In this document: positions 6,958 to 51,810 of the stretch, piece by piece
Layout of the letters: every line of letters begins with the position of its first letter
Position numbering within the stretch: the first letter of the stretch is position 1
From: Euglena gracilis
Taxonomy: Eukaryota
Length of the DNA stretch: 64,000 nucleotides
Direction: 5' to 3'
Assembly: GCA_039621445.1 (NCBI GenBank)
Contig: CP154954.1
Span: 15,209,805-15,273,804, forward strand
Made by a program: the position numbers and the translations under genes
Notes under the pieces: model-generated
Told to the model about the DNA's origin: nothing
Seen by the model: only the letters and a program-made list of their open reading frames with translations
The model's database searches: none

Positions 6958-6979
6958 ATTTTAATCCTTTTATCTGTGA

Positions 6980-12501: not shown

Positions 12502-13357
12502 TGTTGGCCGCCGGCTTTCGCCGGCAGCCAAAAATTGCCAGAAAGCGCAAATTTCAAATTCGCGGGTAACAGCCAATCAGTTAAAAAAAACCCGTGATAG
12601 AAATTGGAAGCGGGTCAAATTAGTTTGCATCTTCAAAGTCTGTTTTTTTGCAGAACTTGAGGGGCTTTCCCCATTATTTGGCAAATAAGGGATACCATTG
12701 CATTGAATTTGGCATTTACATTCTTGGTGAGAATTCGAAGTGTGGATCACATTGTTGGTGGACTTTGAATTGCAATTCATATTGGTTATTGAAGTCAATT
12801 TGGAATTGAAATAAAGAAGGAGACCCTACAATACCGCCACCCTCACCGCCGCTCCTATTCCCTATACCCCTCTTCCTTGCCCCAGGTTTGCACATTTTCA
12901 CACATTCACATTTCACAGTACGTTTTCAATTCTTCACATTCAGCTACTTTCAGTTTTTCACTCTCAAAGTTTCAAGTTTCAGTGGGTTGGGTTGTGGGTT
13001 GGTTTTACCTTCAAGGTGTGCAAGAGAGAGTCTGAGAGTGAGAGAGAAAGAGAGAGGAGAAAAGTGAGATTTCATTACAAATGGCAGATTTTTCGATTTT
13101 CACCAAATTTTCGGAAAAAATTAAAAAAACGATCCTACGCGCCGGCTGGGGTAGGGGGAACCACCTGGGTGAAAAAATGGGAGTTGGCCTGAGCCCACCA
13201 ACCCCCAGAAAAAGCGCAGGCCCCGCCCCGGAAACACCCACCCCCCGGCTGTCGGTGGTTTTCCGCGACGGCGAGGACCCCCCCGGGCCCTCGGCCCACC
13301 GGGACTCGCCGGTCGCGGGGGCGACCGGCGGCGCACAGGGGGTGGGGCCGGCGAACA
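12502..13357 (+). repeat. 3' LTR of element A
   Basis: Starts TGTTGGCCGCCGGC immediately after a purine tract and ends GGCCGGCGAACA, followed by the TSD TGCG. Confidence 0.95.
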
Positions 13358-13772
13358 TGCGGAAATAAACAGAGAACATTTTTGTTTGCGCATTTGCGCA
13401 AATGCGCGCATAAAACATTTTTTTTGTGTGCGCATTTGCGCCCATAAGCTTGCGCGTTGACAAACAGTGTGACAAACCCACCAACTGGACGGCCCTCTTG
13501 TCTGCGCACTCACGACTCCTTTGTCACGCGGTTTATCAACAGCGTCAGTTCATGGGTACCAAAGCCCAATCCCTGAAGGACACGTTTATGTCCACACACA
13601 TAAACATGTTGGTGCGCGCATTTGCGCAAATAAACACAAACATGTCCTTCCAGTGTTGGGCTTCTTCCGCTGGGTTCTTTGCCACACAATTGTTTGTTCG
13701 TATCCCGGGTATAAGCCAGGTGGGAGACACCCGTCCCCCTCATTCCCTGTGGGCCCTATTTCTTCCCCCTTG

Positions 13773-15093
13773 TGTTGGGGGGTCCGGGAAACCCACATGC
13801 GCCCGGAGTGCGGCCCCATTGATGGGGAAAGATACTCGCCGGCGACGCTTTGCGTACTGTGGTATGTTTTTGTTGTTGTTCTTCCCCTGGACAGCTTGAC
13901 CTGTTGGGTTGTATGCCAAGGGAAGGTTTGCCTGGCGTGAATGTGGGTTGGATCATCAGGAGTTGTTCCCGTCGAGCGCCTGGGAAGGGCGTCCGGGGGG
14001 GGGGGGCATGGGTGGAGTCCATGAAGGCCTGGGAGGAGGCCCTTGTTGCCCCCAAGCCCAAATGGCGTGAAGTGTGTGGGATTATCCCTTGGGTGAGGAT
14101 GAGGGAGGCAGATGTCATGTTGTTGCCCATAGTATATGTGGATGGATTCATTGAGTTCGTAGGGGATGGAAGAGAGCGTGGGGGGTGGTGGGGGGAAGGT
14201 TGGGAAGGGAGAAGGCCCTAGGGGATGCGAAGCGCGTCTGGATGGGCTCCTTTCCTAACCAGTGGGGTATCCTTAATTTTGACTTCCAATTCCAAGGTCC
14301 AAATGTAGGAAGGTGAAGGAATGCATTTGGAGAGGGGGGAGAGTGGCAGAAGTGCATTGGGCATCTCCCCATGGATTGGAAGGCGGTTGGAGAAAAAAAG
14401 GATTTTTTCCCCCCATTGTTGGCAAGTGGTGTTCCTTTGATTTCTTTCCCACAGTGGGTTTCCCATTTACCATTGTTTTTGTTTATCTATTTGGCTGAGT
14501 TTGATTCACCATTGGCTGAGTTTGATTCATTATTGGCTGCGAGTTTGATTCATTGTCATTGGTCAAAGTCATTGTCATTGGTCAAGACAAGACAATCGAC
14601 AAAGCGGAAGTTGAAGTTTGCCTAAGGGGAAGACCGAACACCACCTCGAACCTTGAACCTTTCGTCCGTCCCCTCCCCCAAGGTATTGTGCCTAATTTTT
14701 TACAAAGGAAAAAAGGGGATATAGAATTTGGAAAGCGCAAGGATTTTCAGTCAATTTTACTGAAAATTTTACTGAAAATGTCCTCTTTTTCAGATGTGGA
14801 GAGGCAAGGGTTGGAGCCGGGGAAGGGGGGGGTATGGGGCCCCGCCCCCTTACGTTGCACAAGCAAGGGAGTGGCAAGCGGCCCAAGACCGAGAAAGGGC
14901 GAGGGTGCAAAGGATAGTGACCCAGGTATGTTTGGGGATATGCAAGGGGGGGTATGCATGAAGCCCGAAGGGAATCGTGTTTCTGTTGGATCCCCTGAAA
15001 CTGCGGAGGGAAATAAAGATCCTACGCCGCCGGAGGCCCATCCCGGGGTCCCCCTCGCGGGGGCGGACACGGGGTGGGCGTCCCGCGTTAACA
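13773..15093 (+). repeat. 5' LTR of element B
   Basis: Starts TGTTGGGGGGTCCGGGAAAC and ends CCCGCGTTAACA. Confidence 0.95.
14490..14586. promoter_or_regulatory. Tandem ATTGG (reverse CCAAT) enhancer-like repeats in LTR B (also at ~27760-27855)
   Basis: TTGGCTG(C)GAGTTTGATTCA x3 followed by TTGTCATTGGTCAA x2. Confidence 0.5.
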
Positions 15094-18032
15094 TGGTCGC
15101 AGAGGTTTGTGCTGCGGTTGCTGTTTGGTGTTTTTCAGCTGTTTCAAATTCCATGTTTCCCAGCGTAAACATGGTAATCAGAGGGGCGAAAGCTGCAATC
15201 AGTTTTCAGGTTGGATTGTCAGTGAGTGATTTTGTCTGTATTTGTTTTGCCCTGAGTTTCGCAAAGACAAATTTTCAGACACCAACAATTCTGGAACCGG
15301 TTGCGGTGATGGGTTGGATTTTTTTGGTGACGATTGTCATCACGGGTTTGAAGACAGCAGCTGGGTGGTGTTGGTTTGTAATGTCGCCGACATTGCAATT
15401 CAGGGAGATCCAAGGGGGTTCCTGGACGGAACCCCAGATTTGTTTTGCTGATCACAACATTCTGGGTCACCATGAAAGTTTTCTGTTGCCCCCCAACCAA
15501 TCTGAAAAGAATTCTAGTTTTTTGCAGGCGTCTATACCTCAGGTGCTGCGAGAGGGCCTCGAGGACCGAAGCCCTGGCCTGGAGGCCACAAGTTCAATTG
15601 GCAGCGGACCGAAATATTATCAATTGAACGAGGAAGGCCGACGGGACCAGAAGCCCAGCAAGCAAGACGACGAAGTGGCAAGGTGTGACGCTGGTGTTCA
15701 ACAATTTTCAGTCCCAGGGGGTCTGGAAATTAGGGGGGCTGAGTCGCAATTTATGAGTGGAATTGCACAGCCCAGCCCAACGCCAGCTCAGTGCCAGCCA
15801 CAGCCAGCAGAAATGAGTCAGCAAGTTTTTTCCCACGAGAGTTTGGGAGTTGAAGCCCGTTTGCAATTTCAATTGGGAATTGCATTGCTAAACGCAGGGC
15901 CAGCCCAGCCACAGCCAGCCGTCGAGGGGGCAGCCCAGCCCCAGCCAGCAGTCGGGGGGCCAGCCCAGCACCAGCCAAACGCAGGACCAGCCCAGTCAAC
16001 CGGCCAGCAGCTTTTGGGTCAGAGAAGCCCAGAAATTGCAGTGCCCCAGCCAATTACGCACGGGCCAGCCCAGCCCATCATGCAGGGGCCGACCCAGTCA
16101 ATTGGCCAGCAGTTTTTGGGTCAGAGGAGCCCAGAAATTGCAGTGTCCCAGCCAATCATGTACGGGCCAGCCCAGCCCATCATGCAGGAGCCGGCCCAGT
16201 CAACCAGCCAGCAGTTTTTGGGTCAGAGGAGCCCAGAAATTGCAGTGCCAGGGCCAGCCCAGCCAGCCCAGCCCATCATGGAGCCAGCCCAGTCAATGAT
16301 GCAAGAGCCAGCCCAGCCCGTGATGCAAGAGCCAGCCGAGCCAGCCCAGCACATCATGCAGCCAGCCCAGCTCATGATGCAAGAACCAGCCCAGCCCATG
16401 ATGCAAGAGCCAGCCCAGCCCATCATGGGGCCAGCCCAGCCCATGATGCGAGAGCCAGCCCAGCCCATCATGGGGCCAGCCCAGCCCATGATGCAAGACC
16501 CAGCCCAGGCCATCATGGGGCCAGCCCAGCCCATGATGCGAGAGCCAGCCCAGGCCATCATGGGGCCAGCCCAGCCCATGATGCGAGAGCCAGCCCAGCC
16601 CATCATGGAGTCAGCCCAGCCCATGATGCAAGACCCAGCCCAGCCCATCATGGGGCCAGCCCAGCCCATGATGCAAGAGTCAGCCCAGCCCATCATGGAG
16701 TCAGTCCAGCCCGTCATGCAAGAGCCAACCCAGCCCATTATGGAGCCAGCCCAGCCCATGATGCAAGAGCCAGCCCAGCCCATCATGGAGTCAGCCCAGC
16801 CCATGTTGCAAGAGCCGGCCCAGCCCATCATGGGGCCAGCCCAGCCCATGATGCAAGAGCCAGCCCAGCCCATCACGGAGCCAGCCCAGCCCATGATGCA
16901 AGAGCCAGCCCAGCCCATGATGCAACAGCCAGCCCAGTCAACCAGCCAGCAGTTTTTGGGTCAGAGGAGCCCAGAAATTGCCGTGATGAATGCCCATGGT
17001 TATGATGATGACTGGGAGCCAGATCCCGCTGAATTGGCAGTGATCCGGCTGCAATTTCTCTACGGAATTGATGACGAGCCAGCAGTCCCAGTCAGTTTTT
17101 TTGGTTGGAACCCGGTGAAAAGCATAGGTATGATCACTGCCAGCAGGGGGGACCCAGTGGATGTCGATGAGGAGACCCAACCCCCCCCTGGTGGTGTGTT
17201 GGTTGTGCCCAGTAATTCAGTGTCAGTGGCCCAGTCCTGTGGACCCATGGGGGGTTTGGGAAACCCACGAGATCCCCCCGAGTGGGACGGGTCTTGGACA
17301 TCGGGCATTGAATGGATCACCCATGCAGCAGCAGCCAGAGCTGCTGTGATGGTGGCGAGGGGGGCGGTGCAAATCATTGGCCCCAGGATTTTGCAATTGG
17401 AGCAAAATTATGGGACTATGCAAGATCAGGTGGGGGCCATGATGCCATTCTTGCATATGTTGGGGCAGTCCGTGGAGGCTTTATGGCAACAGGCAGAGGC
17501 GCAAGCCAGCCACTCCCTGGAGGTGTCTCAGGGATTGTCGGCGATGCAGGCAGTGGAGGGGCAAACGGGGCAGGGGCTGCAATTTTTACGTGCGGCCAGC
17601 GAGGGGTTGGGCAACCAGATTCACAATTTGCGAAACGACGTTATTTCAGAAATTGCTAGGATTCACAGTGAAATTGATGGCAAACTACAGGGGGTGGGCA
17701 GCCAGCGCGCCGATTTCACGCAGCAATTGGCCAGCGTATGCGCACGACATCAGGCAGAATTGGCAGCGAGTGAGGCTGGGCACGAGAGGAAAATCGCTGC
17801 CATTTTGGAGGGGCACCGTTTGGCCGAAGGCCAAATGCGGGCAGAATTTGAGGCAGAAAAGGAAGCCATGTTTGCCAGATTTTCCGCACAATTTCAACAG
17901 GTCAGTTCGATTTGTGCTGAGTTAAGGGAGGCCCAGAGCGGACTCAGCAACGCAGTGGAAAAGCGAGTGCAGGCTTTGGAAGAGTGGGTTCGGTCTCGGC
18001 CAAGGGGGGGGGGGGAGGACCAAGGGGGTTGA
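14553..18032 (+). CDS. ORF0 / extended Gag N-terminus of element B (hydrophobic segments, Pro-Ala-Gln-Met repeats, coiled coil)
   Basis: 1159-aa open frame that opens inside the LTR; a plausible start is the ATG at 15093. Hydrophobic stretches at ~15100-15385, PAQPMMQE/PAQPIMG repeats at ~15895-16985 and a coiled-coil-like region at ~17380-17990. Ends just after a poly-G run. Confidence 0.75.
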   Translation: MSLVKVIVIGQDKTIDKAEVEVCLRGRPNTTSNLEPFVRPLPQGIVPNFLQRKKGDIEFGKRKDFQSILLKILLKMSSFSDVERQGLEPGKGGVWGPAPLRCTSKGVASGPRPRKGEGAKDSDPGMFGDMQGGVCMKPEGNRVSVGSPETAEGNKDPTPPEAHPGVPLAGADTGWASRVNMVAEVCAAVAVWCFSAVSNSMFPSVNMVIRGAKAAISFQVGLSVSDFVCICFALSFAKTNFQTPTILEPVAVMGWIFLVTIVITGLKTAAGWCWFVMSPTLQFREIQGGSWTEPQICFADHNILGHHESFLLPPNQSEKNSSFLQASIPQVLREGLEDRSPGLEATSSIGSGPKYYQLNEEGRRDQKPSKQDDEVARCDAGVQQFSVPGGLEIRGAESQFMSGIAQPSPTPAQCQPQPAEMSQQVFSHESLGVEARLQFQLGIALLNAGPAQPQPAVEGAAQPQPAVGGPAQHQPNAGPAQSTGQQLLGQRSPEIAVPQPITHGPAQPIMQGPTQSIGQQFLGQRSPEIAVSQPIMYGPAQPIMQEPAQSTSQQFLGQRSPEIAVPGPAQPAQPIMEPAQSMMQEPAQPVMQEPAEPAQHIMQPAQLMMQEPAQPMMQEPAQPIMGPAQPMMREPAQPIMGPAQPMMQDPAQAIMGPAQPMMREPAQAIMGPAQPMMREPAQPIMESAQPMMQDPAQPIMGPAQPMMQESAQPIMESVQPVMQEPTQPIMEPAQPMMQEPAQPIMESAQPMLQEPAQPIMGPAQPMMQEPAQPITEPAQPMMQEPAQPMMQQPAQSTSQQFLGQRSPEIAVMNAHGYDDDWEPDPAELAVIRLQFLYGIDDEPAVPVSFFGWNPVKSIGMITASRGDPVDVDEETQPPPGGVLVVPSNSVSVAQSCGPMGGLGNPRDPPEWDGSWTSGIEWITHAAAARAAVMVARGAVQIIGPRILQLEQNYGTMQDQVGAMMPFLHMLGQSVEALWQQAEAQASHSLEVSQGLSAMQAVEGQTGQGLQFLRAASEGLGNQIHNLRNDVISEIARIHSEIDGKLQGVGSQRADFTQQLASVCARHQAELAASEAGHERKIAAILEGHRLAEGQMRAEFEAEKEAMFARFSAQFQQVSSICAELREAQSGLSNAVEKRVQALEEWVRSRPRGGGEDQGG
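15094..15105 (+). promoter_or_regulatory. Primer-binding site (tRNAiMet-like) of element B
   Basis: TGGTCGCAGAGG abuts the LTR and matches TGGTAGCAGAGG at 11 of 12 positions. Confidence 0.7.
15895..16985 (+). repeat. Coding minisatellite (21- and 24-bp units)
   Basis: Alternating CAGCCCAGCCCATCATGGGGC and CAGCCCAGCCCATGATGCAAGAGC units. Confidence 0.9.
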
Positions 18033-18543
18033 CCCCAGCATTGGCCGAAATCAGATCCGAGGTTCAGCAGCTGCAGGGGTGGGTGCACGCACAGCCAGCA
18101 GCAGATGGGCAGAGAGAAATTCTGCAAAATCTGCTTGCCGTGGAGAGTGGGCAGATCCGGGAGCGAGTGGAAGGGTGGTTACGGGATGTGCATGCCCAAG
18201 TCGATGCGCATCTGCAAAGCCGCCTTCCCTCAGTCCCTGTCGCAGGAGCTGGGAGGTGCGGAAACGTGGGCGGAATGATGACAATTGGGGAGACGAGGAC
18301 CCCCGTCACCGCCCAGCCCAACCTGCAGGCTCAAGCGAGCGGTGTGCCTGCGATTCGTCAGCCGCCCCCAGTGATGCAGCCAGTGGGGTTTGGGGGGGGG
18401 GGAGCCCCCACTCGGGGCCCAAAGGGGATTTGCCCAGCCAAGTCCAATGGGGAGGCTCGTTGAATCGATCTCCCCAGTGAGGGAGGGAACCGACTCCCCT
18501 GAGGGATGGGGAGGGGGATCATGGGGAGGCAGCTTGCCAGGCT

Positions 18544-20193
18544 GTGGACCTGCGGACGCAGGGCTATGTGGATGAAATGGCCCAGAGATTCCGACAGGAA
18601 AGGGAGGTTGCTTTGGGGCAGGCAGCGTCTGTGGGGATTCTGCGCAGGGATCTGCCAACCGTGAATTCTGTCCCCCCAGTGGGCCAGGAGTTTCCGCGAG
18701 GGGGTAGGAGGTTGTTGCCCCCTCCCTCTGTGATTGGCAGCCATGCTTCGGACGGAGAGAGTGAGATCGCCCGACCCAAACTCATTCTGCCAGGTGCTGG
18801 GGGTCGAGGATTGTGTGGTTGGCCTGGTGGTGCACCCCCTGGGAATTACGCTGAAAATTCCAGTTTTGTGGGGTCCCATGCAAATCAATGCAGCCAGCAT
18901 GATGACCCTGGGCGTACGGCACGGGTGGGTGTGACGGGGGCAGCCCCTGCGAGCCAATTCCCGTTTTTTCAGACCCATCCCATCAATTCAGACGTGTGGC
19001 GGCGGATGCCGCGTCCGCGGTTTTCAGGGTTGGCCAAAGATTTTGCCAAGTTTGAGGGGGAATGGGAGGAGCTCGAGCGGGTTTGTTCCGAGACTTCTCC
19101 ACTTCCCCCATCAGATTTCGTGTTGTTGCAGGAGTTCAAAAGTTGCCTCGATGAGGCAACTCAGGCAAAGTTGAGATTGCGCATGAAGCAGGATGCGGGT
19201 CTCACGTTGGCGGGTTTCCGCCAAGAGCTCCGGAGGGAATTTGGAATTGATTCCTTGAAGCAGCACAGGCAGAGTTGGGAGAGCGTGAGGTTGAGCCGTA
19301 CAGGACCCAATGGGGGGGCGACCTTACAAGATTTGCGCAGGTACGGGGAGGAATTCAAATTATCAAGGGAGCAAGTTCCGGAACGTAGCGCCGGTGAGGA
19401 GCGAAAAATGTTGTTCACACAAATGTCGCCTTCGCTCCAGGAAGATCTCATGCGGGAGACCGCAAGACGGCGGGTCAGCCGTCCGTGGATCAGGGTCACG
19501 TTTCCAACGAGGGTGAACGGGCCAGCTGTTTTGGCAGAAATTCAAGCCCACCTTGGGGAATCACTGCCACCGGTGCACGAATGTTCGTCAGGATACGTGA
19601 TCGAGACTCCCACTGAGGCTTGGCGGGAAAAGCTCTTGGCGTGGCACGGGGCAACCATGGCTGGGGCCAGGGTGAACTTCACTCGACACGAGTATGAATT
19701 GTCGAGTGATGACATTTTTGAATTTGTGGCTGCCCGTCTTCGGACAGACGAGGAGCTGGAAATCACCCGCCGGGCATTTGGTTTGGAGACCCATCCGGGG
19801 GACGCAAGGGCGAACCCCAAACCGTTGGAGACCAAAGCAGTCGTGGTGCAGGCACCTTCGGAACGGAGACCCGAGAGCAAATCCCCCACCAAAAGGAAGG
19901 GCAAGGGATTTGGAAAGAAATCCCCATCCCCGAGGAGATCAGACCAAGGGGGGGATTCTGGACCTGGTGGGTGCCCCACATGTCGGAAAGGGAATTGGAG
20001 GAGTGACCATGACCCAAAAACTTGCTACTGGAATCGGCAATCAGAGTGTTTCACGTGCAGAACGGCCGGACGGGAGTTTGTACACGACTATCGCCAGTGC
20101 GAGTGGGTCAGGAAAGCCAGAGAGGAAAGCCAGAAGAGGTCTGCCAAGGAGCCAGCCCCAAAGGGGGGGGTCCCCCCCCAAAGGCCTGAGTAG
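18544..20193 (+). CDS. gag: Gag (capsid-like domain plus two CCHC zinc knuckles) of element B
   Basis: PRFSG...FEGEW capsid-like motif. Knuckles CPTCRKGNWRSDHDPKTC and CFTCRTAGREFVHDYRQC. Ends at TAG 20191-20193. Confidence 0.85.
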   Translation: MDLRTQGYVDEMAQRFRQEREVALGQAASVGILRRDLPTVNSVPPVGQEFPRGGRRLLPPPSVIGSHASDGESEIARPKLILPGAGGRGLCGWPGGAPPGNYAENSSFVGSHANQCSQHDDPGRTARVGVTGAAPASQFPFFQTHPINSDVWRRMPRPRFSGLAKDFAKFEGEWEELERVCSETSPLPPSDFVLLQEFKSCLDEATQAKLRLRMKQDAGLTLAGFRQELRREFGIDSLKQHRQSWESVRLSRTGPNGGATLQDLRRYGEEFKLSREQVPERSAGEERKMLFTQMSPSLQEDLMRETARRRVSRPWIRVTFPTRVNGPAVLAEIQAHLGESLPPVHECSSGYVIETPTEAWREKLLAWHGATMAGARVNFTRHEYELSSDDIFEFVAARLRTDEELEITRRAFGLETHPGDARANPKPLETKAVVVQAPSERRPESKSPTKRKGKGFGKKSPSPRRSDQGGDSGPGGCPTCRKGNWRSDHDPKTCYWNRQSECFTCRTAGREFVHDYRQCEWVRKAREESQKRSAKEPAPKGGVPPQRPE

Positions 20194-20256
20194 GGGGGTC
20201 ACAGCCCCGAGAGGGCAGGCTGTGTAAACCCGAGTCCCTCAGAGAGTGCGAGCGAG

Positions 20257-20790
20257 GTGCAGCTTGGGGGACGGAGTTTTTTAGCCGTGACTCCCAGTGG
20301 GGCGGGGGGGGGGGGCACACTGTTGGGGGCTTCCAGTTTGTCCGGCACGCGAGTCATCCGGGCCCCCGGGATGAAGGACGAACATTTGCACCTACGGGCG
20401 GTGGGACGCGTAGCGGAAGGGGTTCAGCCGTCGGTCATGGTGTTGATCGACACCGGTGCGCAAGTGAGCCTGGTTCGAAAAGGGTTGATTCCTGAGGAGC
20501 ATTTGACGGCGGCGGCGGAAACACCTCTTCGGTTGATGGCCGCAAACCAAAAGCCGATGCAAGGCGGATCCCGGGAGGTGAGCATGGAGCTCACCTTCGA
20601 GGGTTTTTGTGTGGACACGGGACGGGCTGTGAAGGTGATTGCCCCAACCAGGTTGTGTGAGGCGGACATCGCCGAGGATGTGATTGTGTCATACACCTGG
20701 TTGGGAGAACGAAATTTTCAGGTGGACCCAAAACGACATGGGTTGCGGGGTCAAGTGGGGGGAATGCTGCTTTGGATACCTGGGAGTCCC
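20257..20790 (+). CDS. Aspartic protease of element B
   Basis: VLIDTGAQVSLVRKGLI (DTG at 20449), LRLMAANQKPMQGG and DVIVSYTWL. In frame with gag. Confidence 0.9.
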
Positions 20791-20865
20791 ACCGTGGAGA
20801 TAAGGGCAACGGGTGGGGGGTGTCCAGAGCCCCGCGTCTGCGTTGAGAAAGCAGATCTGGGGCCC

Positions 20866-21480
20866 AAGAGGATGGCTTTGGATTTGTTTTCGGGCACGGG
20901 CAGCGCCACGAGGGTGCTCCAAGCCCACGGGTTTTGCGTGGTCTCCGTGGACAGTGATCCCAAACGTGGGGCGACACACACGGTTGATGTGTTGACGTGG
21001 GATTATGCGAATGCATATCCCCAGGGATTCTTCGAGGTCATTGTCGCATGTCCACCTTGCACTGAGTACAGCCGGGCCAAGACCGTTGGTGTCAGGGACC
21101 TGGCACATGCGGACCAGGTAGTTCGAAAGACCCTTGGAAATTGTGGAGTTCTACCAGCCGGCACGGTGGTGGGTTGAAACGCCGGCGACCGGATTGCTGG
21201 CGACAAGCAGCCTGATGGAGGGGTTCCCGTTTGTGGATTGTGATCAGTGCCAGTTTTCGGATTTTGGGTATCGGAAACCGACACGTTTTTTTGGGAGTGA
21301 TCACATCCGTGATTTGCAATCGGTGGTTTGCGATCAGAGGACGTGCCCAAACCTTGTGCAGGATCCTGGGAATCCGACGGGGATTCGGAGACACAAGAAC
21401 GCACAGGGGGGGAACACGGGGTCGGTGAAGCGCGAATTGGCTTACCGTTTACCCCCAAGTTTGGTTGAGTACGTGACGGG
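20866..21480 (+). CDS. C5-cytosine DNA methyltransferase domain (1-nt frameshift at ~21132)
   Basis: Motif I ALDLFSGTGS (D at 20881), II VSVD, III VDVLTWDY, IV IVACPPCTEYS (catalytic PC at 21055-21060), VI WWVETP (21173), VIII GYRKPTRF and C-terminal AYRLPPSLVEY. Confidence 0.9.
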
Positions 21481-21730
21481 TTTGGGGAGTTCCACACCTG
21501 TGTTGGGTGCATGCACGGACGTGCGAAGTGCAGATTCCCATGGGGAAGAAAACGGCTCATTTGGGCCTTGTGTTCGGGGGGGAGGTCCTCCGGACATCGT
21601 GCATGTCCCACAGCCCATGCTCGGGAGTCGTGATGTGTCAACGTCAAGCCGTCTCGGAGGGGGGGGCATCTCACAGGGGGAGCGTGTGGGAGTGCCCACC
21701 CATCGAGGATCGCCCGGTGGCAGATGGCGC

Positions 21731-22140
21731 CAGAATTCTTACGCAGTGCAATGGTCAGTGGTTCAAAGCGTTATGCAGGAGTTGGGAATCCAGCCCACCG
21801 TGGATGCCTTCAGTGAGGAGTCCACGGCTCGATTTTGCCGTTGGTGGGGACCTGGGAGTTCCGAGTCGGAGGATGCTTTTTTGCAGCCGTGGGGTTCGGA
21901 GGTTCTGTGGTTGAATCCTCCTTTTGACTTGTTCAACCAAGTGTTGGACAAGGTTGAAAAAGATCATGCACATGCCGTGTTGGTGATGCCTGAGTGGGAG
22001 GACAAGGATTATTTCGTGCGAGCACGGAAAATGGCGGTGAAATCGATGCACTATCCCTGGGGATCCAGCGTTTTTGAGTTGCGGAGCAAGCCATTGCAAC
22101 ATACCCGGTGGCCTGTGTGGTTCATGTTGCTTTGTGGTGA
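21731..22140 (+). CDS. N6-adenine-type (amino) DNA methyltransferase domain (phage Dam / DIRS-MT-like)
   Basis: NSYAV...TVDAFS...EDAFLQPW...LWLNPPF (NPPF at 21914-21925)...VLDKV...AVLVMPEW...RWPVWFMLL. Confidence 0.88.
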
Positions 22141-22479
22141 CCGGGGGCGATGTCCCGTTCATGGAAATTTCGTGGAGGGGGAGGCCCCCCCACCTGTGTC
22201 GGAGCCGGATCCGGCGTTGTTTCGTGCCATGGAAGAGGTCCGGTGTATGAGACTTGTGGCTGAGCCCCGAGTTTCTTTCAAGGTGGCATGGGGGGGGAAG
22301 GGCGAGAGGGTGAGGCAAGACAGTCCTGGGGAGGATTCGGAATCGGATGGTGCGGGTGATGAGGAAACCGAGTGGGAAGTGGCCAAACGTCTATGTGCCG
22401 CACAAGCGCACTCCACACGGTGAAAGGGGCTGTTGAACCGACCGACCCCGCGGAGGGGGTTGAGATCGAGCGGTTTAAA

Positions 22480-23430
22480 AAAGGAGTTATTTGCAGAATT
22501 TGCAGAAACTTCTTTGTCGGGGGTGTGTCCTGTGAATCCCCCCATTCGAGGCCCGTTTGGGGAGGCTGAAATTTGGCTGAGATCGGATGCCCGACCTGTG
22601 AGTGTGCCACCTTTCCGTTTGGCTGGGGAGCGTCGGGAGGCACATGCGAAATTGATTGATGATGTGGTGAAGAGTGGGAAGGTCGAACCTGGACGGGGGG
22701 CGTGGAATACCCCCTCATTCCCTGTGCCCAAGAAACGACCAGGGGAATATCGGTTGGTTCAGGACCTGAGACCACAAAATGCAGCCACATTGAAGGACGG
22801 CCATCCTTTGCCCCTGATTGGTGCCATTTTGGAGCGGCAGGGCAAATTCAAGATGTGGTCGGTTCTCGACCTCACAGATGGATATCACCAAATGCCCATG
22901 AAGCCGGAACACCGGCACATCACGTGCATGTCGACCCCCCGTGGGACCATGCAATGGAAAGTGCAGGTCATGGGTTTGAAAAATGCGGGGGCGCAGTTTC
23001 AGCGCATGATGGAGTGGGTCCTGCGGGACCTGGAGTTCGCCGACCCTTACATAGATGATATTATTGTGGGGTCCACCGGGGATTCGGTGAGCGAACTTCT
23101 GCGGAACCATGCCCGAGATGTCCGGCAGGTTCTGGAGACGCTCCATCAAAACAACCTGGTATGCAGCCCGAAAAAGTCACATTTTTTTATGCGCCAAGTG
23201 GAGTTTTGTGGGCACATACTCCGTGAGGGGACCCGAAGCCCGGCTCCGGGCAAGTTGCTACCCATCCAAGAGTGGCAATTGCCAAAAACCATCACGGAGA
23301 TGCGTGGGTTCCTTGGGCTGTGTAATTATTTCAGTGAATACGTGGATCACTACGCGGAATATGCAGCCCCCCTCATGGAAAAGCTCAAAGTCGGACGGGT
23401 GGAAGGAAAAAAGGGGTCACGGGTTCGGAT
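22480..23430 (+). CDS. Reverse transcriptase of element B
   Basis: FPVPKK..EYRLVQDLRPQN, LDLTDGYHQ, MGLKNAGAQFQRMM, YIDD (23048-23059), VEFCGH and RGFLGLCNYF. Confidence 0.96.
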
Positions 23431-23449
23431 CGAGCGGGCACTCCTCAGA

Positions 23450-23940
23450 CATCCAGGCGTTTGAAAATTTGAAACGGCAGTTGGCAAAGGAGCTCGAACT
23501 CTACCAACTTGACCCGGATAAACCTTTTGTCATGCGGTGTGATGCCAGCGATTTCGCCATTGGTGCGGTCTTGGAACAGGTGCATCCCGAGGAAGATCGC
23601 ACCTCTCGCATTGACATCGGCAAGACCCGTTTGGTGCCTGTGAGTTTCTTTTCACGCAAGTTGACAGGAAGTCAACTGAATTGGACTCCGCGCGAAAAAG
23701 AAACGTACGCGATCGTGGCTGCCTTACGGAAATGGGCAGGCCACATCGGTTTCCAACCCGTGATCGTGGTCACGGATCATCGGTCACTCCAAAATTGGGT
23801 CACGGAGCACGTAGACACACCTTCCGGGCCGAGGGGCCGGAGGGCGCGTTGGCATGAGACCCTGTCCCAGTTTGACTTGGAAATTGTGTATATGCCGGGA
23901 CCCACAAATGTGGTGGCCGATGCGCTGTCCCGGTATGCCT
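23450..23940 (+). CDS. RNase H of element B (frameshifted relative to RT)
   Basis: CDASDFAIGAVLEQ, FFSRKL, EKETYAIV, TDHRSL and NVVADALSR. Confidence 0.95.
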
Positions 23941-24015
23941 ACCCAGCCACATCCGCACGGGAGGATGTGAGTTTTCATGGAAGCGAAACGGCCCGGGAGG
24001 AGGTGAAAAAAATGA

Positions 24016-26214
24016 TTGGGGGGCAGTCCCGGCTGTTTGGTGGTGAGTGGTCCTGGACAAGTTGCCCGTCCTTTGGCTGGACATGTGCATGTAATCACCC
24101 GTTCGGGCCGTGAAGTGGCGCCGAAGGGGGATGAAAGCACAAAGATCCCTGCGGGTGAACCACCTCTGTTGCCTGTGTTGGAGGACCAATGTGCATCCGA
24201 AGTTGGTCTTCCCCGTGGTGGTGTGGTGGGGTCAGATGGGGATCCTGTGATATTGGGTGCATCACAACCGGAGGGTGGGCCTGAGTTGGTTGGTCCGGAT
24301 GGCGAATCTGATTTGGTGCTTGGGCCTGAGTTTTGTGTGAATCCTGACCCGGTGATCGATGCTTCCTGCCCATCGGTGTCGGGGCCTGAGGTAGGCCCGG
24401 CCCCCATGCCGTGGAGTCGGCGTTTTGTGTTCGCCAAGTCGCCTTCACGTGGGGAAAGGGTTGTGGCACGAAAGTCACCCCAGGGGGATTCCCGAGGGCA
24501 TCCCCCACCGGGACCTTCGGCCGATGAGCCGGGATCGCCGGAGGGGGGGGAGGGTGCCGAAGAGGGGTTTGTGATGAAGGATACGGATCCTGGTTGGTGT
24601 GACGACCAGGGGGGGGGATCCGATGAGGATGTGGGACCGTTTCCCTCCGGGGGGAGAGCTTCCCGAGAGAGCACCCCTGATTCGGCAAGGGTGATGGAGG
24701 CCAAGTGGGGGGAAGCGTATGCGGAGTCCCTGTGTTGGGGGGCGGACTGGGAGCTTGCAAATGCCCCCGGACCTGATTGGCCGAAGGGGATCAAAATTTT
24801 TGGGGATAAAATGTATCGAGAGGAGAAGCTGTGTGTCCCTGAAAAATTTGCGCTCCATGTTGTGCGGGCACATCATGAGGCCACGGCCCATGCATCGGGG
24901 AGGCGGTTCACGGCTGAGTTGGCCCGACGGTACGTTTTTCCGCCAGTGGTTGATTTTTGGTCGGTGGCTGATCGGGTCCACCGACAATGTTTGGTTTGCC
25001 AAGCTTGTGAACCACCGACGTTTCCCCTGAAGGATGAAATCCACCTAACACCGGTCCCAGACAGATTTTTTTCAAGTGTCTGTTTGGATGTTTTTTCGAT
25101 GCCGAGTGTCAAGTGGTTGGGACAGCCATACGATTGTTATCTTTTGTGCGTGGATCGGTTGACGGGGTGGATGGTGGCACGGCCCACGACAAAGCTAGGC
25201 CTGACTGGGGAGAGGGCGGCCCACTTGTTGATGGACACAAGTTGGGGAGAGGTGGGGGTGCCCGATGTGATCACAAGTGACCAAGGCCCACAATTCGTGA
25301 GCCAATGGTTTGTCACTTTGTGTGCCCGGTTGGGGGTTCGTGTGGCATACTCCCAGGCTCATCGGCCACAAGCAAATGGAAGGGCCGAAGTGTGCGGTCG
25401 CATTTTGCAACTCGCATTGCGCAAAATGCATTGTGCGGAGGGGATAAATTGGGTCGAGGCCCTCCCACGGGCCTTGAGGTGGCAGCATGACGCGGTGGGG
25501 GATTTCGGTGTCACCCCCTACGAGTTGGTTTTTGGTCGGGAGAGGAGCCTGGCGGGGATCCCTTGGCAACCGGTGCGGGAGTGTGAGGAGGTGGGTAATT
25601 TTTTGGGTCGCATGGAGGCCGTCGATCGGAAGGTGGCGGGTGCCCTGCATGAAGCACACCAAAAAATTCAGGATCGGGTCAACAACAAGAGGAAACCGAA
25701 GGCCCTATTCGAGGATGGGTCTTGGGTTTGGTTGTTGTATCCCAAGAAGGTGGGAGGACGAAAAATTGAGAGGTGGTGGAGGGGCCCTTTCCAGGTGGTG
25801 CAACGGGTGGGGGCGGCGAGTTATCAGGTCCGTACGGAACAAAGCGTGTTGTATGATGTTCATAGGGACCAACTCAAGCCTTGCCTGTGGGACATGGATT
25901 TAGGAGAGTCATACCCGCTTGTGTTCCGTGGTTCCAATCCTGTCGACCAACGGCCGGTGGTGCCCGTGGTCGATCGGGTGTTGTTAGACCATCGCCCTCA
26001 CCCGGTCCACGGGTTTGAGTTTTTGACTCGGTGGACAACCGGGGGGCAAGTTTTTGAGGCATGGGAGCCATCGGACAGTTTTCTGCGTGGCTGTCCCGAC
26101 CCCTGGCTCGCGTATTGCCAAGAGAAGGGACTGGTTTTGGACATCCCCCAAGTGTTCGAATCAGTTGCCCGAACCCATGATTTCCCGTCCAATTCCCCCG
26201 AGGTGGAGGAGTGA
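24016..26214 (+). CDS. Tether, integrase and degenerate chromodomain of element B
   Basis: VITRSG tether. HHEATAH...CLVCQAC, CLDVF, SDQGPQF, NGRAE and WRGPFQV. C-terminal VDRVL.DHR...FEFLTRW...EAWEP. Confidence 0.93.
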   Translation: MGGSPGCLVVSGPGQVARPLAGHVHVITRSGREVAPKGDESTKIPAGEPPLLPVLEDQCASEVGLPRGGVVGSDGDPVILGASQPEGGPELVGPDGESDLVLGPEFCVNPDPVIDASCPSVSGPEVGPAPMPWSRRFVFAKSPSRGERVVARKSPQGDSRGHPPPGPSADEPGSPEGGEGAEEGFVMKDTDPGWCDDQGGGSDEDVGPFPSGGRASRESTPDSARVMEAKWGEAYAESLCWGADWELANAPGPDWPKGIKIFGDKMYREEKLCVPEKFALHVVRAHHEATAHASGRRFTAELARRYVFPPVVDFWSVADRVHRQCLVCQACEPPTFPLKDEIHLTPVPDRFFSSVCLDVFSMPSVKWLGQPYDCYLLCVDRLTGWMVARPTTKLGLTGERAAHLLMDTSWGEVGVPDVITSDQGPQFVSQWFVTLCARLGVRVAYSQAHRPQANGRAEVCGRILQLALRKMHCAEGINWVEALPRALRWQHDAVGDFGVTPYELVFGRERSLAGIPWQPVRECEEVGNFLGRMEAVDRKVAGALHEAHQKIQDRVNNKRKPKALFEDGSWVWLLYPKKVGGRKIERWWRGPFQVVQRVGAASYQVRTEQSVLYDVHRDQLKPCLWDMDLGESYPLVFRGSNPVDQRPVVPVVDRVLLDHRPHPVHGFEFLTRWTTGGQVFEAWEPSDSFLRGCPDPWLAYCQEKGLVLDIPQVFESVARTHDFPSNSPEVEE

Positions 26215-26600
26215 TCCCCCGGGGGGGGGGGAGTCATGATCATTTGCCCCCTAAAAAAAAAAAAAAAAAACTCCGGAGCCCCCTGTAGGATTTTCGCCCC
26301 TTGGGAGAGCATGCCCCTGCGCCCCCTGATGGGGGGGGGCAGGCGATTTGTCTCCGGGGGGAAATGTGCCCCGGGGGGGGGGGGCAGGATTTTTGTCTCC
26401 GGGGGGAAATGTGCCCCCGGGGGGGGGGGCAGGATTTTCGCCCCTTGGGGGGGAGTTTGCCCCCGTGCCCCCGAGGAGGGGGGGGGGGCAGGATTTTCAC
26501 CCCTGGGGGGAACACATTTTTCACCTCCGGGGAAGGGGGGGGCACGGTGTATGCCCCTGAGTGCCCCGGGGGGGGGGGCGTTTCCTCGATGGGGAAATGC
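26215..26600 (+). repeat. GC-rich ~45-bp degenerate tandem repeat in the 3' region of element B
   Basis: Repeated GGGGGGGCAGGATTTT(C/T)G(C/T)C(C/T)CC..GGGGGG...TGTGCCCCC units. Confidence 0.75.
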
Positions 26601-27020
26601 GCCCCGAGCCCCGGCAAATCCATCCTTGCCGTGTTGGTGGCAGGTGTATAACCTGGATCGTGTGCAAGCGGTGCCACCTGTTGGTGGAGGAGGTGGACCG
26701 GCCGGCCGCCGTGGACCGAGCCGCGGCCGTAGACCGAGCGGCCGCCGCGGACCGGGCTGCTGCTGCTGACCGGATACTTGAAGAGTACCCTGGTTTTCGC
26801 CCGGGCTTCGTTGGGTGAGGCCGAGGCGAACGGGTGACCTGGGTGAAGGGTGGCAAGGGTTTGGAGTGTTGGCCGACGGGTGAGGCCGGTCAAAAAAAAA
26901 AAAATTTTTTTTTCCCCTTTTGCCGGTTGGTGAGGGAGTGAGGAGTATCGATGGTATGGGTTTCCGGACCCCGCCTCCCTTTGGTCGGTGAAGGGTTGAA
27001 GTTTCTGGGAGAAACTTTTT

Positions 27021-27030
27021 GAGTAGGGGG
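27021..27030 (+). promoter_or_regulatory. Polypurine tract of element B
   Basis: GAGTAGGGGG directly before the 3' LTR, preceded by a T run. Confidence 0.75.
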
Positions 27031-28362
27031 TGTGGGGGGGTCCGGGAAACCCACATGCGCCCGGAGTGCGGCCCCATTGATGGGGAAAGATACTCGCCGG
27101 CGACGCTTTGCGTACTGTGGTATGTTTTTGTTGTTGTTCTTCCCCTGGACAGCTTGACCTGTTGGGTTGTATGCCAAGGGAAGGTTTGCCTGGCGTGAAT
27201 GTGGGTTGGATCACCAGGAGTTGTTCCCGTCGAGCGCCTGAGGGAAGGGCGTCCGGGGGGGGGGGGGGCACGGGTGGAGTCCATGAAGGCCTGGGAGGAG
27301 GCCCTTGTTGCCCCCAAGCCCTAATGGCGTGAAGTGTGTGGGATTATCCCTTGGGTGAGGATGAGGGAGGCAGATGTCATGTTGTTGCCCATAGTATATG
27401 TGGATGGATTCATTGAGTTCGTAGGGGATGGAAGAGAGCGTGGAGCGTGGGGGGTGGTGGGGGGAAGGTTGGGAAGGGAGAAGGCCCTAGGGGATGCGAA
27501 GCGCGTCTGGATGGGCTCCTTTCCTAACCAGTGGGGTATCCTTAATTTTGACTTCCAATTCCAAGGTCCAAATGTAGGAAGGTGAAGGAATGCATTTGGA
27601 GAGGGGGGAGAGTGGCAGAAGTGCATTGGGCATCTCCCCATGGATTGGAAGGCGGTTGGAGAAAAAAAGGATTTTTTCCCCCCATTGTTGGCAAGTGGTG
27701 TTCCTTTGATTTCTTTCCCACAGTGGGTTTCCCATTTACCATTGTTTTTGTTTATCTATTTGGCTGAGTTTGATTCACCATTGGCTGAGTTTGATTCATT
27801 ATTGGCTGCGAGTTTGATTCATTGTCATTGGTCAAAGTCATTGTCATTGGTCAAGACAAGACAATCGACAAAGCGGAAGTTGAAGTTTGCCTAAGGGGAA
27901 GACCGAACACCACCTCGAACCTTGAACCTTTCGTCCGTCCCCTCCCCCAAGGTATTGTGCCTAATTTTTTACAAAGGAAAAAAGGGGATATAGAATTTGG
28001 AAAGCGCAAGGATTTTCAGTCAATTTTACTGAAAATTTTACTGAAAATGTCCTCTTTTTCAGATGTGGAGAGGCAAGGGTTGGAGCCGGGGAAGGGGGGG
28101 GTATGGGGCCCCGCCCCCTTACGTTGCACAAGCAAGGGAGTGGCAAGCGGCCCAAGACCGAGAAAGGGCGAGGGTGCAAAGGATAGTGACCCAGGTATGT
28201 TTGGGGATATGCAAGGGGGGGTATGCATGAAGCCCGAAGGGAATCGTGTTTCTGTTGGATCCCCTGAAACTGCGGAGGGAAATAAAGATCCTACGCCGCC
28301 GGAGGCCCATCCCGGGGTCCCCCTCGCGGGGGCGGACACGGGGTGGGCGTCCCGCGTTAACA
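27031..28362 (+). repeat. 3' LTR of element B
   Basis: Starts TGTGGGGGGGTCCGGGAAAC and ends CCCGCGTTAACA. Only a handful of differences from the 5' LTR. Confidence 0.95.
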
Positions 28363-31300
28363 CTTGCACGTCCCTTGCCCAACACCCCACACTTACCTTC
28401 CTCTCACTGCGGCCCTCCCGCCGGCTTGGTCACACCAGACCCACACCCCCCGGCACCTCCTCCCCGCACTTTAACAAACAGCCCACAAACATCACACCAG
28501 GGCGCCGCAAGCAAAGCAGTCCGGCAAACACCCAGGACGCACACCGCCGGCAGCTCGGATACATCCGGGGACACAGCCGAAAGGAGCAACAGGGTCAGTA
28601 AAGGTCCCGTTCCTATGGTGCTTTTTTGCGTTTTTTTCAGTGTGAGCCGGCAGGGTCCCGGGGGTTTGGGCCCACAAAAACCTTTCCGACACACCCCCAA
28701 AATCACTGTTTTTGGCCAAAATCCCGGGGGTCACACCGCCAAAACCAAAAAATCCCTGCGTTTTTGCCCTTGCTTGTCTACATGTTTTTAAACCCCCGGA
28801 CCTTCGCCGCCGGAATCAAAAAACTCGGGGGTTTGCGCAAATGCGCAAATCAAACGAAAAAGCTTAAGTGCGAATTAGGCCGTCTAAGTCATTCACGCAT
28901 GGAGATACTCCCTGGGGCCTGATTAACAGAGGCACACCGTGCCCCAAGCACGCAAGATGCACACCAGCGCTTAAAGTATGATCATTGTGACACTCCGAGA
29001 AAATGCTTTCCCTCCCGTTTCTCCGCGCAAGGTTACTGCCTAACCTCAGAATATGGCTGAGATCTATCCAACCAATCACCCTCTCCAGAGTATCCAGGGC
29101 TGAAGAAAAAAAACTCTGGCACCAAACCTGGGGGCTGCAAGCAAGAGACGGGTGCAATGATTTGTGTGTTGCCACGGCAGCCAGTGATGGGGGGGCATGG
29201 GTCAGTATGCCACACGATGCGCAGGGCTCATGCTGGGACAACAACGAGGATGGGGAACGGGAAGCCGGGCTGGGTGAGAGCTGTGAGGGAGGTCATGGGG
29301 GAAAGGCGGCGCTCCATCAACGGAACAGAACAAACGGTCGACAGGAGCGCAGGGCTGTATGGGTCTGTGGATCAATACAGGTCGGTGGCTGAGTGATGGC
29401 CATGCGCCTTTAGACAACTCCAGTTACCCCACATTTCCACCCAACCCACCGTCCTCCCCTCCCCCGGATCAGTGGGCCACGTTGGTCCCCACAGGCCAGG
29501 GAACCAACGTCAGGAGGGCCACGTTGACTACAACAGCGCGGGGGGGGGGGGGGACGCGTGCTGCCAAGCCAAATGGCTTAAAAAGAGGGGCATCTCGGGG
29601 GGGGGGCAGAGCGTCACTTAGCGACCCCCCAAGGGGGGGGTCCAGCTGAAAGGCGTATCTGCATGTTTTTTTTCTTTCTTTGCAAATAATTGTGTTGCTT
29701 GGGTCTCCCCATTTCCTAGTTTTTCCTGTTCAATACCCCCCCCGGCTCATTGCCCCCCCCCTCCCAGCTGTTGGAGTGAACTTGCCCCCCCCCCGCCCCA
29801 GATGGCTCCCAGCCAGGGCGTCGCTTTAGCTGAAGGGGGTGTCCAGCCAGCCAGCCAGCAGCCTTTTCCAGTTCCGGAACCCACACCATCGACAAGTGGT
29901 ATTGAACGGATTTTTTGGCTTTTGGGGACGCAAAAAAATGGGTCGAAAATGGGCCAAATGGGTTGGAAAATGGCTGACGAGGCAGATTTTGGCTCGACAA
30001 TTGATTTGTTGCGGTATTGCCAGTCTTTTAATTTTTTTTGAATGGCAGTGCCGATCTTTTTGATACCCAGTTCGACCTGTGGTCGGCCTGGTTCCAGCCG
30101 GGGGTCAGCCAGCAGCCTGTTTCTCAAGTCAACCCAAATGAACCAAAAACCCAAATGAACGCAAGACGCTCAGAATTGCAAACTCAATGTAATGCGCCCA
30201 GGAGGGAAAAAAATGAGGCAAAAAAATTGTGGTCTTGGGTGCATTCTGAATAATGCGCATTCTTTGGTTTTCAGAATTTCAGAACGGCCAAAAAACTGGC
30301 AAAAAAATGAATGAAGCCTCGGGAAACAATTTTTGAGCCAAGTGCAAGAATGACAAATGCCGGGGGTCTGTGGACAATACACAGCCCTGGGGATCGGGGT
30401 ACAGGGAGGGGCCACAGGGGTCAAGCCGGCGACGACAAGGTCGATGCAGCAGCACCAGCAGGGGCAGAGGCACGGGGTGGTGGGTGGTGAGACTAGGGGT
30501 GGCGGGGCAGGGCGGAAGGCAGCAGAGGAGGTTGGGATCCAGCCCCCCCCCATCCACCCCCCCCCAGGGCGTCCCTCAACGGCAGGGACAAAATGAAAAA
30601 AACACGCACACGTTGTTTTGTAGGCTTTGGAACATTCTGAACAATGTGCATTTTTGGTCAAAAATTTCAGGATGCCCAAAAAACTGGCAAAAATGGCAAT
30701 AATCCAAATAATTAATAATTAATTAAATTATTAATTATTCGAAAAAATAATTTATAATTAGAATTCGGAAGTCAGAATAGTTAGAGTTCGGGAAAATGGC
30801 ATCCCGGACACCACCATCCCTGTGGCTTCTCGCCTACCTACCCCCCCCCAAAACCATCAAACTCTCCAAACGGGCATTATCCCCCAACTGTCACCGACAG
30901 GTCAACCTCTCCTGGAGGGGGGGGAGGGGTAGTGGAACTCCCCTCCACCTCCCCTTGGAAGGGCTGGCCTGCACTGGACCCAAATAACATGATGGTTTTG
31001 CATGGTTCGGGGGGGGGGGGGGTGGCTGCACTGCAAGAGGGATATCAGCATCTGTGGAGCGGTTTTCAAAGGACGGGTCCAAACCAAAATGTCATAAGAA
31101 TTCCATCCAAATGAGGCGGCGGCTGCCCAGTAAAACCAACGGAGTGAACGTGTGGCCTGTGTGGTGGTTCCGCTCCGGCTGGGGTTATCCCAGCCCGGTC
31201 GTGGACCACTGCACACCACAGAGGCGGTCTGCACAACACCGCCGATGCCACAGGCAACGTTTGAAAAAAACCAAAACACCCAAAAGCTCACAGCAGGACA

Positions 31301-51039: not shown

Positions 51040-51810
<771 letters not shown>

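Follow-up and report, generated by a model that had tools for sequence, protein, structure and literature searches.

Element B is a long terminal repeat (LTR) retrotransposon in a 64,000-nucleotide stretch of Euglena gracilis DNA (GenBank assembly GCA_039621445.1, contig CP154954.1, positions 15,209,805 to 15,273,804; hereafter the window), and it carries two methyltransferase (MTase) modules, one of the C5-cytosine type and one Dam-like, between its protease (PR) and its reverse transcriptase (RT). We consider it likely that element B is a degraded copy of a many-copy chromodomain Ty3/Gypsy family of the EpiLTR type, in which both modules were captured. As described in the available text of a recent preprint (bioRxiv 10.64898/2026.05.21.726589, 22 May 2026), DAM domains occur in LTR elements other than DIRS (“DAM-LTRs”), and “EpiLTRs”, found in Euglena gracilis and Cymbomonas tetramitiformis, combine DAM with a DNA methyltransferase (DNMT) and a chromodomain. 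Judging from the alignments presented here, both modules of element B are homologous to MTases, with catalytic residues that are near-invariant across the family. A first-pass annotation made from the letters alone had proposed a 5-methylcytosine (5mC) and an N6-methyladenine (6mA)-type MTase inside the pol polyprotein of this element: the placement of both modules between PR and RT is borne out, whereas this copy has no single open frame that holds them.

The C5 module is recognised by a series of motifs, namely FSGTG (20887-20901), PPCTEYS (21052-21072), WWVETP (21167-21184), GYRKPTRFFGS (21266-21298) and YRLPPSLVEYV (21443-21475), and the signature motifs I (FxGxG), IV (Pro-Cys), VI (Glu) and the basic motif VIII are all present in the window. 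The C5 half matches DNA-methyltransferase families of PHROG (phrog_363, E 1.2e-6; phrog_757, E 3.3e-6). The Pfam profile DNA_methylase (PF00145) is matched at E<=0.01 by 27 of the 141 members of alignment A1, with a best E-value of 1.2e-8, and the relatives P0233, P0009 and P0129 pass its cut-off with 28.3, 29.1 and 27.2 bits, respectively. Conservation was read from a C5 domain alignment in which rows were kept if their BLAST match spans both ends of the domain (n = 27; the two halves from the window were added and are not counted). Motif I is conserved at F (25/27) and G (26/27), motif IV at P (24/27) and C (26/27) and motif VI at E and P (26/27 each), while the Arg of KPTR is invariant (27/27). 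Equally invariant, in 27/27 each, are three Cys and one His in the segment that links motif VIII to the C-terminal helix. In the window this Cys3-His set lies within 21242-21412 (DxCQF, CDxxxC and a His before LGG), and it may form a metal site in place of the usual target-recognition domain.

The Dam-like module displays the motifs VDAF (21800-21811), NPPF (21914-21925) and MPEW (21986-21997) and matches phrog_111 (E 8.9e-5). Here the relevant Pfam profile is Dam (PF05869), which 70 of the 141 members of alignment A1 match at E<=0.01 (best 8.5e-12). An alignment of 75 sequences was assembled from the 73 near-full-length ones among 98 matches and the two copies in the window. Both the D and the F of vDaF are found in 75/75; the four positions of NPP[FYW] are conserved in 75 (N), 74 (P), 74 (P) and 75 (F, Y or W) of 75, and P.W in 74 (P) and 73 (W). 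Conservation of catalytic residues across family copies, in which the first-pass annotation had seen a check on its proposal, is thus found for PC (24-26 of 27) as well as for NPP[FYW] (74-75 of 75). The motifs that it had listed (DTG at 20449, FSGTG, PPC, VETP, RKPTR, RLPP, DAF, NPPF, MPEW and YIDD at 23048) all lie where it had placed them; the linker between the modules, given there as ~85 residues, is about 80 residues long (21482-21724); and its caution that NPPF alone leaves the target, 6mA or N4-methylcytosine, undecided was fair.

Because the C5 module of the window is broken, the closest intact relative, the metagenomic protein P0003, was modelled instead with AlphaFold2 (AF2) and alignment A1. 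The resulting model has a mean predicted local distance difference test score (pLDDT) of 78.7, the bulk of both modules exceeding 90. In a structural search against representatives, residues 205-415 matched DNMT3B (Z 13.6, 197 aligned residues, root-mean-square deviation (rmsd) 4.9), with DNMT3A (Z 13.3), M.HhaI (12.5), the prophage Cp-933R MTase (12.2), MET1 (11.5) and DIM2 (11.3) following, while generic Rossmann methyltransferases could be aligned to residues 206-353 only (Z 8-10). Among the matches listed by Foldseek against the PDB, nearly all were DNA C5-MTases (best E 8.9e-8). The predicted structure of P0003 thus has the fold of C5-MTases, which continues beyond motif VIII. An assignment to RNA m5C MTases was tried and rejected: enzymes of the NSUN/Trm4 type align with the Rossmann core only, at Z ~9, as compared with 11-13.6 over the whole module for DNA C5-MTases. 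The Dam-like part of the model (residues 372-572) is most similar, among solved structures, to a cap-specific adenosine N6-MTase (6irx_A; Z 10.1, 139 aligned residues, rmsd 3.3), and in the BFVD collection of predicted viral structures phage “DNA N-6-adenine-methyltransferase” entries rank 6, 14, 16, 26 and 37 (E 1.2e-7 to 3.2e-5). In this model, then, the Dam-like part folds like N6-adenine MTases, and the MTase folds that the first-pass annotation had expected structure prediction to reveal were found for both modules on P0003.

A number of results weigh against so direct an assignment of the modules in the window itself. Its C5 module scores E 0.016 against PF00145, over the N-terminal half, with 15.1 bits against a gathering cut-off of 22, and its Dam-like module scores E 0.02 against PF05869, with 15 bits against a curated cut-off of 28.1 and over profile positions 16-94 of 169 only. 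Motif VI reads ETP, not ENP, in the window and its closest kin (9/27), and motif IV of P0001 has TC instead of PC. The Dam-like module of element B returned zero matches among phages by tblastn, and zero PDB sequences were matched by the MTase open reading frame (ORF) in phmmer or by the A1 profile in hmmsearch. The modelled structure is that of a relative sharing 54% identity with the window and not of the window's own protein, for whose Dam-like part a single-sequence AF2 prediction reached a pLDDT of 36 and was unusable; the BFVD matches come without a range on the model and were attributed to the Dam-like part from names and aligned lengths. Since the window's Pfam scores lie below the cut-offs, the family assignment rests on the relatives and on the fold. 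The first-pass annotation had anticipated DNA_methylase and phage N6-adenine families from a profile search, which is what the relatives match, whereas the scores of the window itself fall short.

To place the modules among their relatives, the ORF at 21122-22423 was used as phmmer query (HMMER) against 1.84 billion cluster representatives, of which 1743 matched at E<=1e-3; a threshold of <=1e-10 leaves 477 of them and one of <=1e-30 leaves 42, and the smallest E-values reach 1e-111, well outside the range of chance matches. Environmental assemblies are rich in this dual-module family, an observation that may be new. Domain order was surveyed in 151 proteins, that is the 150 listed of the 1743 representatives and P0001. 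Both modules are present in 18/151, the C5 module preceding the Dam-like one in 10 and following it in 8, and in P0003 and P0153 the order PR-C5-Dam, which is that of the window, is found within one uninterrupted ORF. Other arrangements are C5-PR-SLBP_RNA_bind-Dam in P0001, Dam-PR-C5 in P0009, C5-RT-RNase H (RH)-integrase (INT) in P0233, C5-RT-RH in P0129 and RT-RH-Dam-INT in P0220. Module order is thus freely shuffled among the relatives, both in pairs (PR-C5-Dam, C5-PR-Dam, Dam-PR-C5) and singly (C5-RT, RT-RH-Dam-INT), and this is possibly new. In P0001, residues 595-658, between protease and Dam-like module, match Pfam SLBP_RNA_bind (E 2.3e-19), a domain of the type that binds the histone-mRNA stem-loop; by its sequence it is another captured host-type domain.

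The closest integrases to that of element B share 71-81% identity with it and all come from metagenome contigs, whereas fish and plant Gypsy integrases reach <=34%, which makes an animal or a plant an unlikely host. The nearest proteins with an organism name are partial entries filed under “Genlisea aurea”, and two of these, P0009 (EPS62093.1) and P0227, are pol fragments of element B's family. All other close relatives being metagenomic, these entries look like contaminant or prey DNA.

Outside retroelements, the kin of the C5 module point to viruses. The best match of P0003 among predicted viral structures comes from Tetraselmis virus 1 (TetV-1), whose putative cytosine MTase (A0A2P0VN45) matches with E 1.8e-17, TM 0.81 over its 218 residues, rmsd 2.0 and 28% identity. 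With the C5 module of P0007, tblastn retrieved 89 records from phages; most of these are “DNA methyltransferase” genes of mycobacteriophages, at 28% identity over 74% of P0007. IMG/VR contains 210 stretches that code for C5 module relatives, and 80 of these loci were examined. The window's own C5 halves match 30/80 at E<=1e-5, and 0/80 had a match to the window's retroelement genes (gag, RT, RNase H, integrase) or Dam-like part beside the C5 relative. G+C content was 22-44% in the nine loci checked, and one locus is labelled as a giant-virus metagenome-assembled genome. By these comparisons, and possibly as a new observation, the nearest non-retroelement relatives of the C5 module are viral, on AT-rich contigs and in a giant algal virus.

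Element B (13773-28362) is a Ty3/Gypsy LTR retrotransposon, as the first-pass annotation had proposed from its motifs. Its LTRs, the sole direct-repeat pair of the element, share 98.9% identity across 1333 nt by self-BLAST; a 4-bp target-site duplication, CTTG, flanks the element (13769-13772 and 28363-28366); and Pfam matches together with the DTG at 20449 give the Ty3/Gypsy pol order PR-RT-RNase H-DDE integrase. The DDE integrase and the direct LTRs with target duplication rule out a reading of element B as a DIRS element. The coordinates of all features are collected in Table 1.

The gag-like and protease ORFs are in the same frame, with only a TAG between them. Read with the standard code, the next ORF (20194-21177, in the frame of gag) combines the protease with the N-terminal C5-MTase half, and the ORF at 21122-22423, in the next frame, encodes the second C5-MTase half, the linker and the Dam-like module and ends at a TGA. 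The protease can be aligned with that of P0001, and the protease part of the P0003 model resembles the retroviral-protease-like domain of Ddi1 (structural search, Z 8.6). In the closest relatives the C5 and Dam-like modules are joined within ~8 residues, as compared with the linker of element B. The C-terminus of the element has no Pfam Chromo match; it can be aligned with the stretch of P0159 that matches Pfam Chromo (E 8e-15), as well as with the chromodomain of a neighbouring retrotransposon, element A (E 5e-11). No Pfam family was matched by the gag-like ORF or by the long ORF upstream of it, and scanning the window for Rfam families and tRNA genes gave zero matches. By analogy, read-through of the gag TAG is likely. 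In the window (20188-20270), a G-run and what may be a hairpin come after this TAG. The folding of the predicted hairpin was not above that of shuffled sequences (z -0.75), which counts against the presumed read-through.

Table 1 Features of elements B and A in the window (all on the + strand where a strand is given)
Feature	Position	Strand	Remarks
Element B: 5' LTR, TG...CA	13773-15093	+	self-BLAST 13772-15093 vs 27030-28362, ends read directly
Element B: long upstream ORF, start within 5' LTR	14526-18032	+	45-nt tandem repeats at 16251-17057, PAQP-rich
Element B: putative primer-binding site, TGG-start	15094-15111	+	abuts 5' LTR; function inferred from position
Element B: gag-like ORF	18481-20193	+	two Cys/His knuckle-like motifs near end; TAG stop 20191-20193
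Element B: aspartic protease	20383-20745	+	LIDTGA 20443-20460 (D 20449); Pfam RVP/Asp_protease_2 weak, E 0.01
Element B: compact C5-cytosine MTase module, ~205 residues	20872-21481	+	FSGTG, PPC, ETP, KPTR, C...C-x4-C...H, YRLPP
Element B: linker, ~80 residues, not conserved	21482-21724	+	between C5 and Dam-like modules
Element B: Dam-like amino-MTase module (PF05869 / DIRS-type)	21725-22165	+	VDAF, WWGPGS, EDAF, NPPF, MPEW
Element B: in-frame TGA	22421-22423	+	separates MTase ORF from RT ORF
Element B: reverse transcriptase	22424-23464	+	YIDD 23048; Pfam RVT_1 E 1.2e-23; frame break near 23441
Element B: RNase H, Ty3/Gypsy type	23448-23874	+	Pfam RT_RNaseH E 5e-26, RT_RNaseH_2 E 7.6e-23; ORF 23091-24113
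Element B: integrase, H2C2 and DDE core	24835-25368	+	Pfam rve E 1.4e-8, Integrase_H2C2 E 0.012; ORF 24016-26214
Element B: divergent chromodomain, integrase C-terminus	25975-26145	+	by transitive alignment
Element B: 3' LTR, TG...CA	27031-28362	+	purine-rich tract 27020-27030 before, CTTG 28363-28366 after
Element A: chromodomain Gypsy	1508-13359		directly upstream of element B
Element A: Dam-like module	6980-7411	+	upstream of element A protease

The copy of element B in the window is dead. Its C5 module is split by a frame break at ~21134-21136, with FSGTG and PPC in frame 1 and VETP, RKPTR and RLPP in frame 2, and two further breaks put RT and RNase H, and RNase H and integrase, mutually out of frame. 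With the break in the C5 module and the TGA before RT, the two modules do not lie in a single open pol frame in this copy, which is therefore unable to make either enzyme as part of pol. The first-pass annotation had noted neither the frame breaks nor the stop.

Public sequencing runs indicate that the damage is not general. The 7.7-kb internal stretch of element B is represented in 20 public-run rows from 15 studies. Contigs of four of these runs were placed on it at >=90% likeness, and numbered 885 (run X1), 293 (X2), 30 (X15) and 20 (X20); so many contigs at 90-100% likeness indicate that the family has many diverged copies. Three of the window's breaks coincide with one-letter length differences in contigs of other runs. 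At 21134 and 21136 such differences account for 506 and 361 of ~1146 depth in X1 and, at 21134, for 93.3/93.3 in X2; at 22411 for 689/1269 (X1) and 2.6/2.6 (X2); at 22475 for 833/927 (X1) and 73.7/73.7 (X2); and at 23441/23442 for 611/1171 (X1) and 71/71 (X2). Positions 22411 and 22475 flank the TGA, and the alternative frame between them is free of stops in the window. Part to all of the contig depth at the breaks would therefore read on, and the breaks are not common to all copies. Joints and loose ends near 24011-24020 in the public-run contigs mark a rearrangement there.

Evidence at the RNA level is weak: the 20 contigs of X20, a leaf-litter metatranscriptome in which DNA may be present, cover 19/30 bins, and even with the contigs of runs that were merely guessed to be RNA the range is 19-22/30 bins, which does not demonstrate expression. 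One contig of run X15 has, at 21286, a junction between the element and a TTAGGG-like repeat, and may represent a truncated copy beside telomere-like repeats.

Element A is a plain DAM-LTR with a chromodomain (Pfam Chromo E 2.8e-10). Its LTR-like repeats (1508-2360 and 12501-13359) share 95.6% identity. Its Dam-like module is 30.8% identical to that of element B (E 2e-18) and matches TIGR01712 (E 1.8e-10; 40.6 bits, below the curated cut-off of 97), phrog_111 (E 2e-10) and, by tblastn, 801 phage records that carry the annotation DNA (adenine) methyltransferase. A C5 module was not found in element A. Upstream in both elements lies an extra tandem-repeat ORF rich in Pro, Ala and Gln (repeats at 16251-17057 in element B and 2795-3919 in element A), neither of which matches a family. 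Elsewhere in the window, long simple repeats occupy 36500-41500 and 51000-52100, with GATAT-like and GA-rich arrays, in which G+C is as low as 19% and GC skew is near 1, and a long CA/GT microsatellite.

What would an intact copy do? The in-frame TAG at the gag/pol border would be read through, and both modules would be synthesised within Gag-Pol. The C5 module would then deposit 5mC on the element's own DNA, be it new cDNA or the integrated copy, and we lean, with some reserve, towards this being its function. The Dam-like module could place N6-methyladenine on DNA or on a replication intermediate; that it writes 6mA on DNA is a tentative proposal, which we find possible and somewhat doubtful. 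The chromodomain would guide integration. Packaged in the particle, both enzymes might in that case mark the element's own cDNA, as the first-pass annotation had suggested.

A first rival concerns the substrate of the Dam-like module. The module might act on RNA, on an RNA:DNA hybrid or on single-stranded cDNA, or might merely bind nucleic acid, and would then leave no 6mA on double-stranded DNA. NPPF occurs in RNA and protein amino-MTases too, and the solved structure that the Dam-like part resembles most, 6irx_A at Z 10.1 over 139 residues, is an RNA-cap enzyme and not a DNA MTase, which speaks against DNA as substrate. So do two results in the available text of the preprint: eukaryotic DAM domains keep Asn-Pro-Pro and are without the N-terminal half of bacterial Dam, with its catalytic and recognition parts, and the DAM domains of DIRS, DAM-LTR and adintovirus origin gave no 6mA rise when introduced into dam- E. 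coli, for which the preprint raises a DNA-RNA hybrid as substrate. We nonetheless regard such a role as rather unlikely, given that homology ties the module to phage DNA adenine MTases (PF05869 in 70/141 members; TIGR01712 at 1.8e-10 and the 801 phage records for element A), that in three species, according to the same text of the preprint, 6mA-methylated insertions are more numerous among DAM-LTRs than in the remaining LTR elements, and that the near-invariant D..F and NPP[FYW] argue for retained catalysis over mere binding.

Marking of the element's own cDNA also competes with action after integration, in trans, in which modules expressed from resident copies would modify host chromatin or all family copies, for self-silencing or to mimic host marks, and would leave the cDNA in the particle unmarked. 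The position of the modules between PR and RT makes this unlikely, since by inference from retroviral biology it would lead to synthesis as Gag-Pol and delivery in the particle; the preprint's available text, for its part, connects DAM-LTRs with the 6mA-associated chromatin of the host and with its enzyme AMT1, and CpG observed/expected ratios of 0.53-0.65 along the window, a moderate depletion throughout, are compatible with a CpG-methylating host, as action in trans would have it. Finally, it is extremely improbable that the two-MTase arrangement is an artefact of nested insertion, chimeric assembly or chance motifs. PR-C5-Dam is found in one ORF in the independent metagenome proteins P0003 and P0153, both modules recur in 18/151 proteins with E-values down to 1e-111, and the whole of element B lies inside a single LTR pair whose flanking 4-bp duplication matches on both sides; these outweigh the frame break, the stop and the rearrangement near 24011-24020 in this copy, and the preprint's warning, in its available text, that the DAM-LTRs of Euglena may include nested insertions and artefacts of assembly.

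Beyond the reading of element B as a degraded EpiLTR-type copy, a more speculative and quite improbable extension is that the C5 module does not descend from a cellular DNMT and is a compact MTase of giant-virus or phage type with a Cys3-His metal site of its own, that retrotransposons captured it and it was shuffled with a DIRS-type Dam, and that the pair acts within the particle on replication intermediates, either the RNA:DNA hybrid or single-stranded cDNA. If this were true, new copies would enter the genome pre-marked with 5mC and 6mA, and the apparent inactivity of Dam-like modules on the double-stranded DNA of E. coli would be explained. More generally, retrotransposons that carry writers of both DNA marks together with a chromatin reader could manipulate the host epigenome and not just suffer it. 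That point is already made in the May 2026 preprint, and the window is thus mainly an independent example; the viral affinity, the Cys3-His set, the shuffled module order and the environmental abundance of the family offer concrete constructs and substrates for activity assays.

How, then, does element B compare with known systems? The novelty of a Gypsy element with tandem 5mC and 6mA-type MTases, for which the first-pass annotation knew of no precedent, does not survive: EpiLTRs came before (bioRxiv 10.64898/2026.05.21.726589), in the one paper on the DAM and DNMT combination that full-text searches found. As far as the available text of the preprint goes, element B is like an EpiLTR in being a Ty3/Gypsy-like LTR element with a Dam-like module, a C5-MTase and a putative chromodomain, and in a Dam-like motif that in both consists of Asn-Pro-Pro and an aromatic residue. 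All three domains of the EpiLTR definition lie inside one LTR pair, the chromodomain being recognised by transitive alignment only. It differs from the Cymbomonas element, whose DNMT sits at the 3' end of pol, in having both modules between PR and RT; for the Euglena gracilis EpiLTR that text gives no domain order, and the comparison with element B is by description. The EpiLTR DNMT clade is described there as sister to DNMT4, whereas the nearest kin found outside retroelements for the C5 module of element B are viral (TetV-1, AT-rich IMG/VR contigs), again a comparison by description.

With DAM-LTRs and DIRS elements, element B shares the same truncated PF05869-like Dam-like module (Goodwin and Poulter 2001, as cited in the available text of PMC5890265 and PMC6338049). 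DIRS elements differ in using a tyrosine recombinase and in having inverted or split repeats, where both A and B rely on a DDE integrase (rve) and carry ordinary LTRs with a target duplication. The phage T1-type Dam family (PF05869; TIGR01712, phage_N6A_met) has the same succession of D-x-F, NPP[FYW] in the form NPP[FY], and P-x-W; the matches in the window are partial, and score below curated cut-offs in both copies.

C5-MTases within retrotransposon coding sequence have been described before, in KnitGypsy-Dnmt3, SymbioDIRS-Dnmt3 and SymbioLINE-Dnmt (de Mendoza et al. 2018, PMC5890265). In the available text of that paper, which notes the Dam-like domains of DIRS elements, the DNMTs of Symbiodinium LINE and DIRS elements and of a Klebsormidium Gypsy element are of the Dnmt3 type or of a Symbiodinium-specific lineage, none with a Dam-like partner; retrotransposon DNMTs give de novo CG methylation, and self-methylation of retrotranscribed DNA is proposed. 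Compared with these, element B has a compact C5 module of ~205 residues, an invariant C...C-x4-C...H set and an adjoining Dam-like module. In size and fold this C5 module is like the compact viral and phage C5-MTases (TetV-1 A0A2P0VN45, mycobacteriophage), which differ in being free-standing genes that, in the 80 IMG/VR loci, have neither RT nor integrase nor Dam as a neighbour, whereas in element B the module is part of a retrotransposon.

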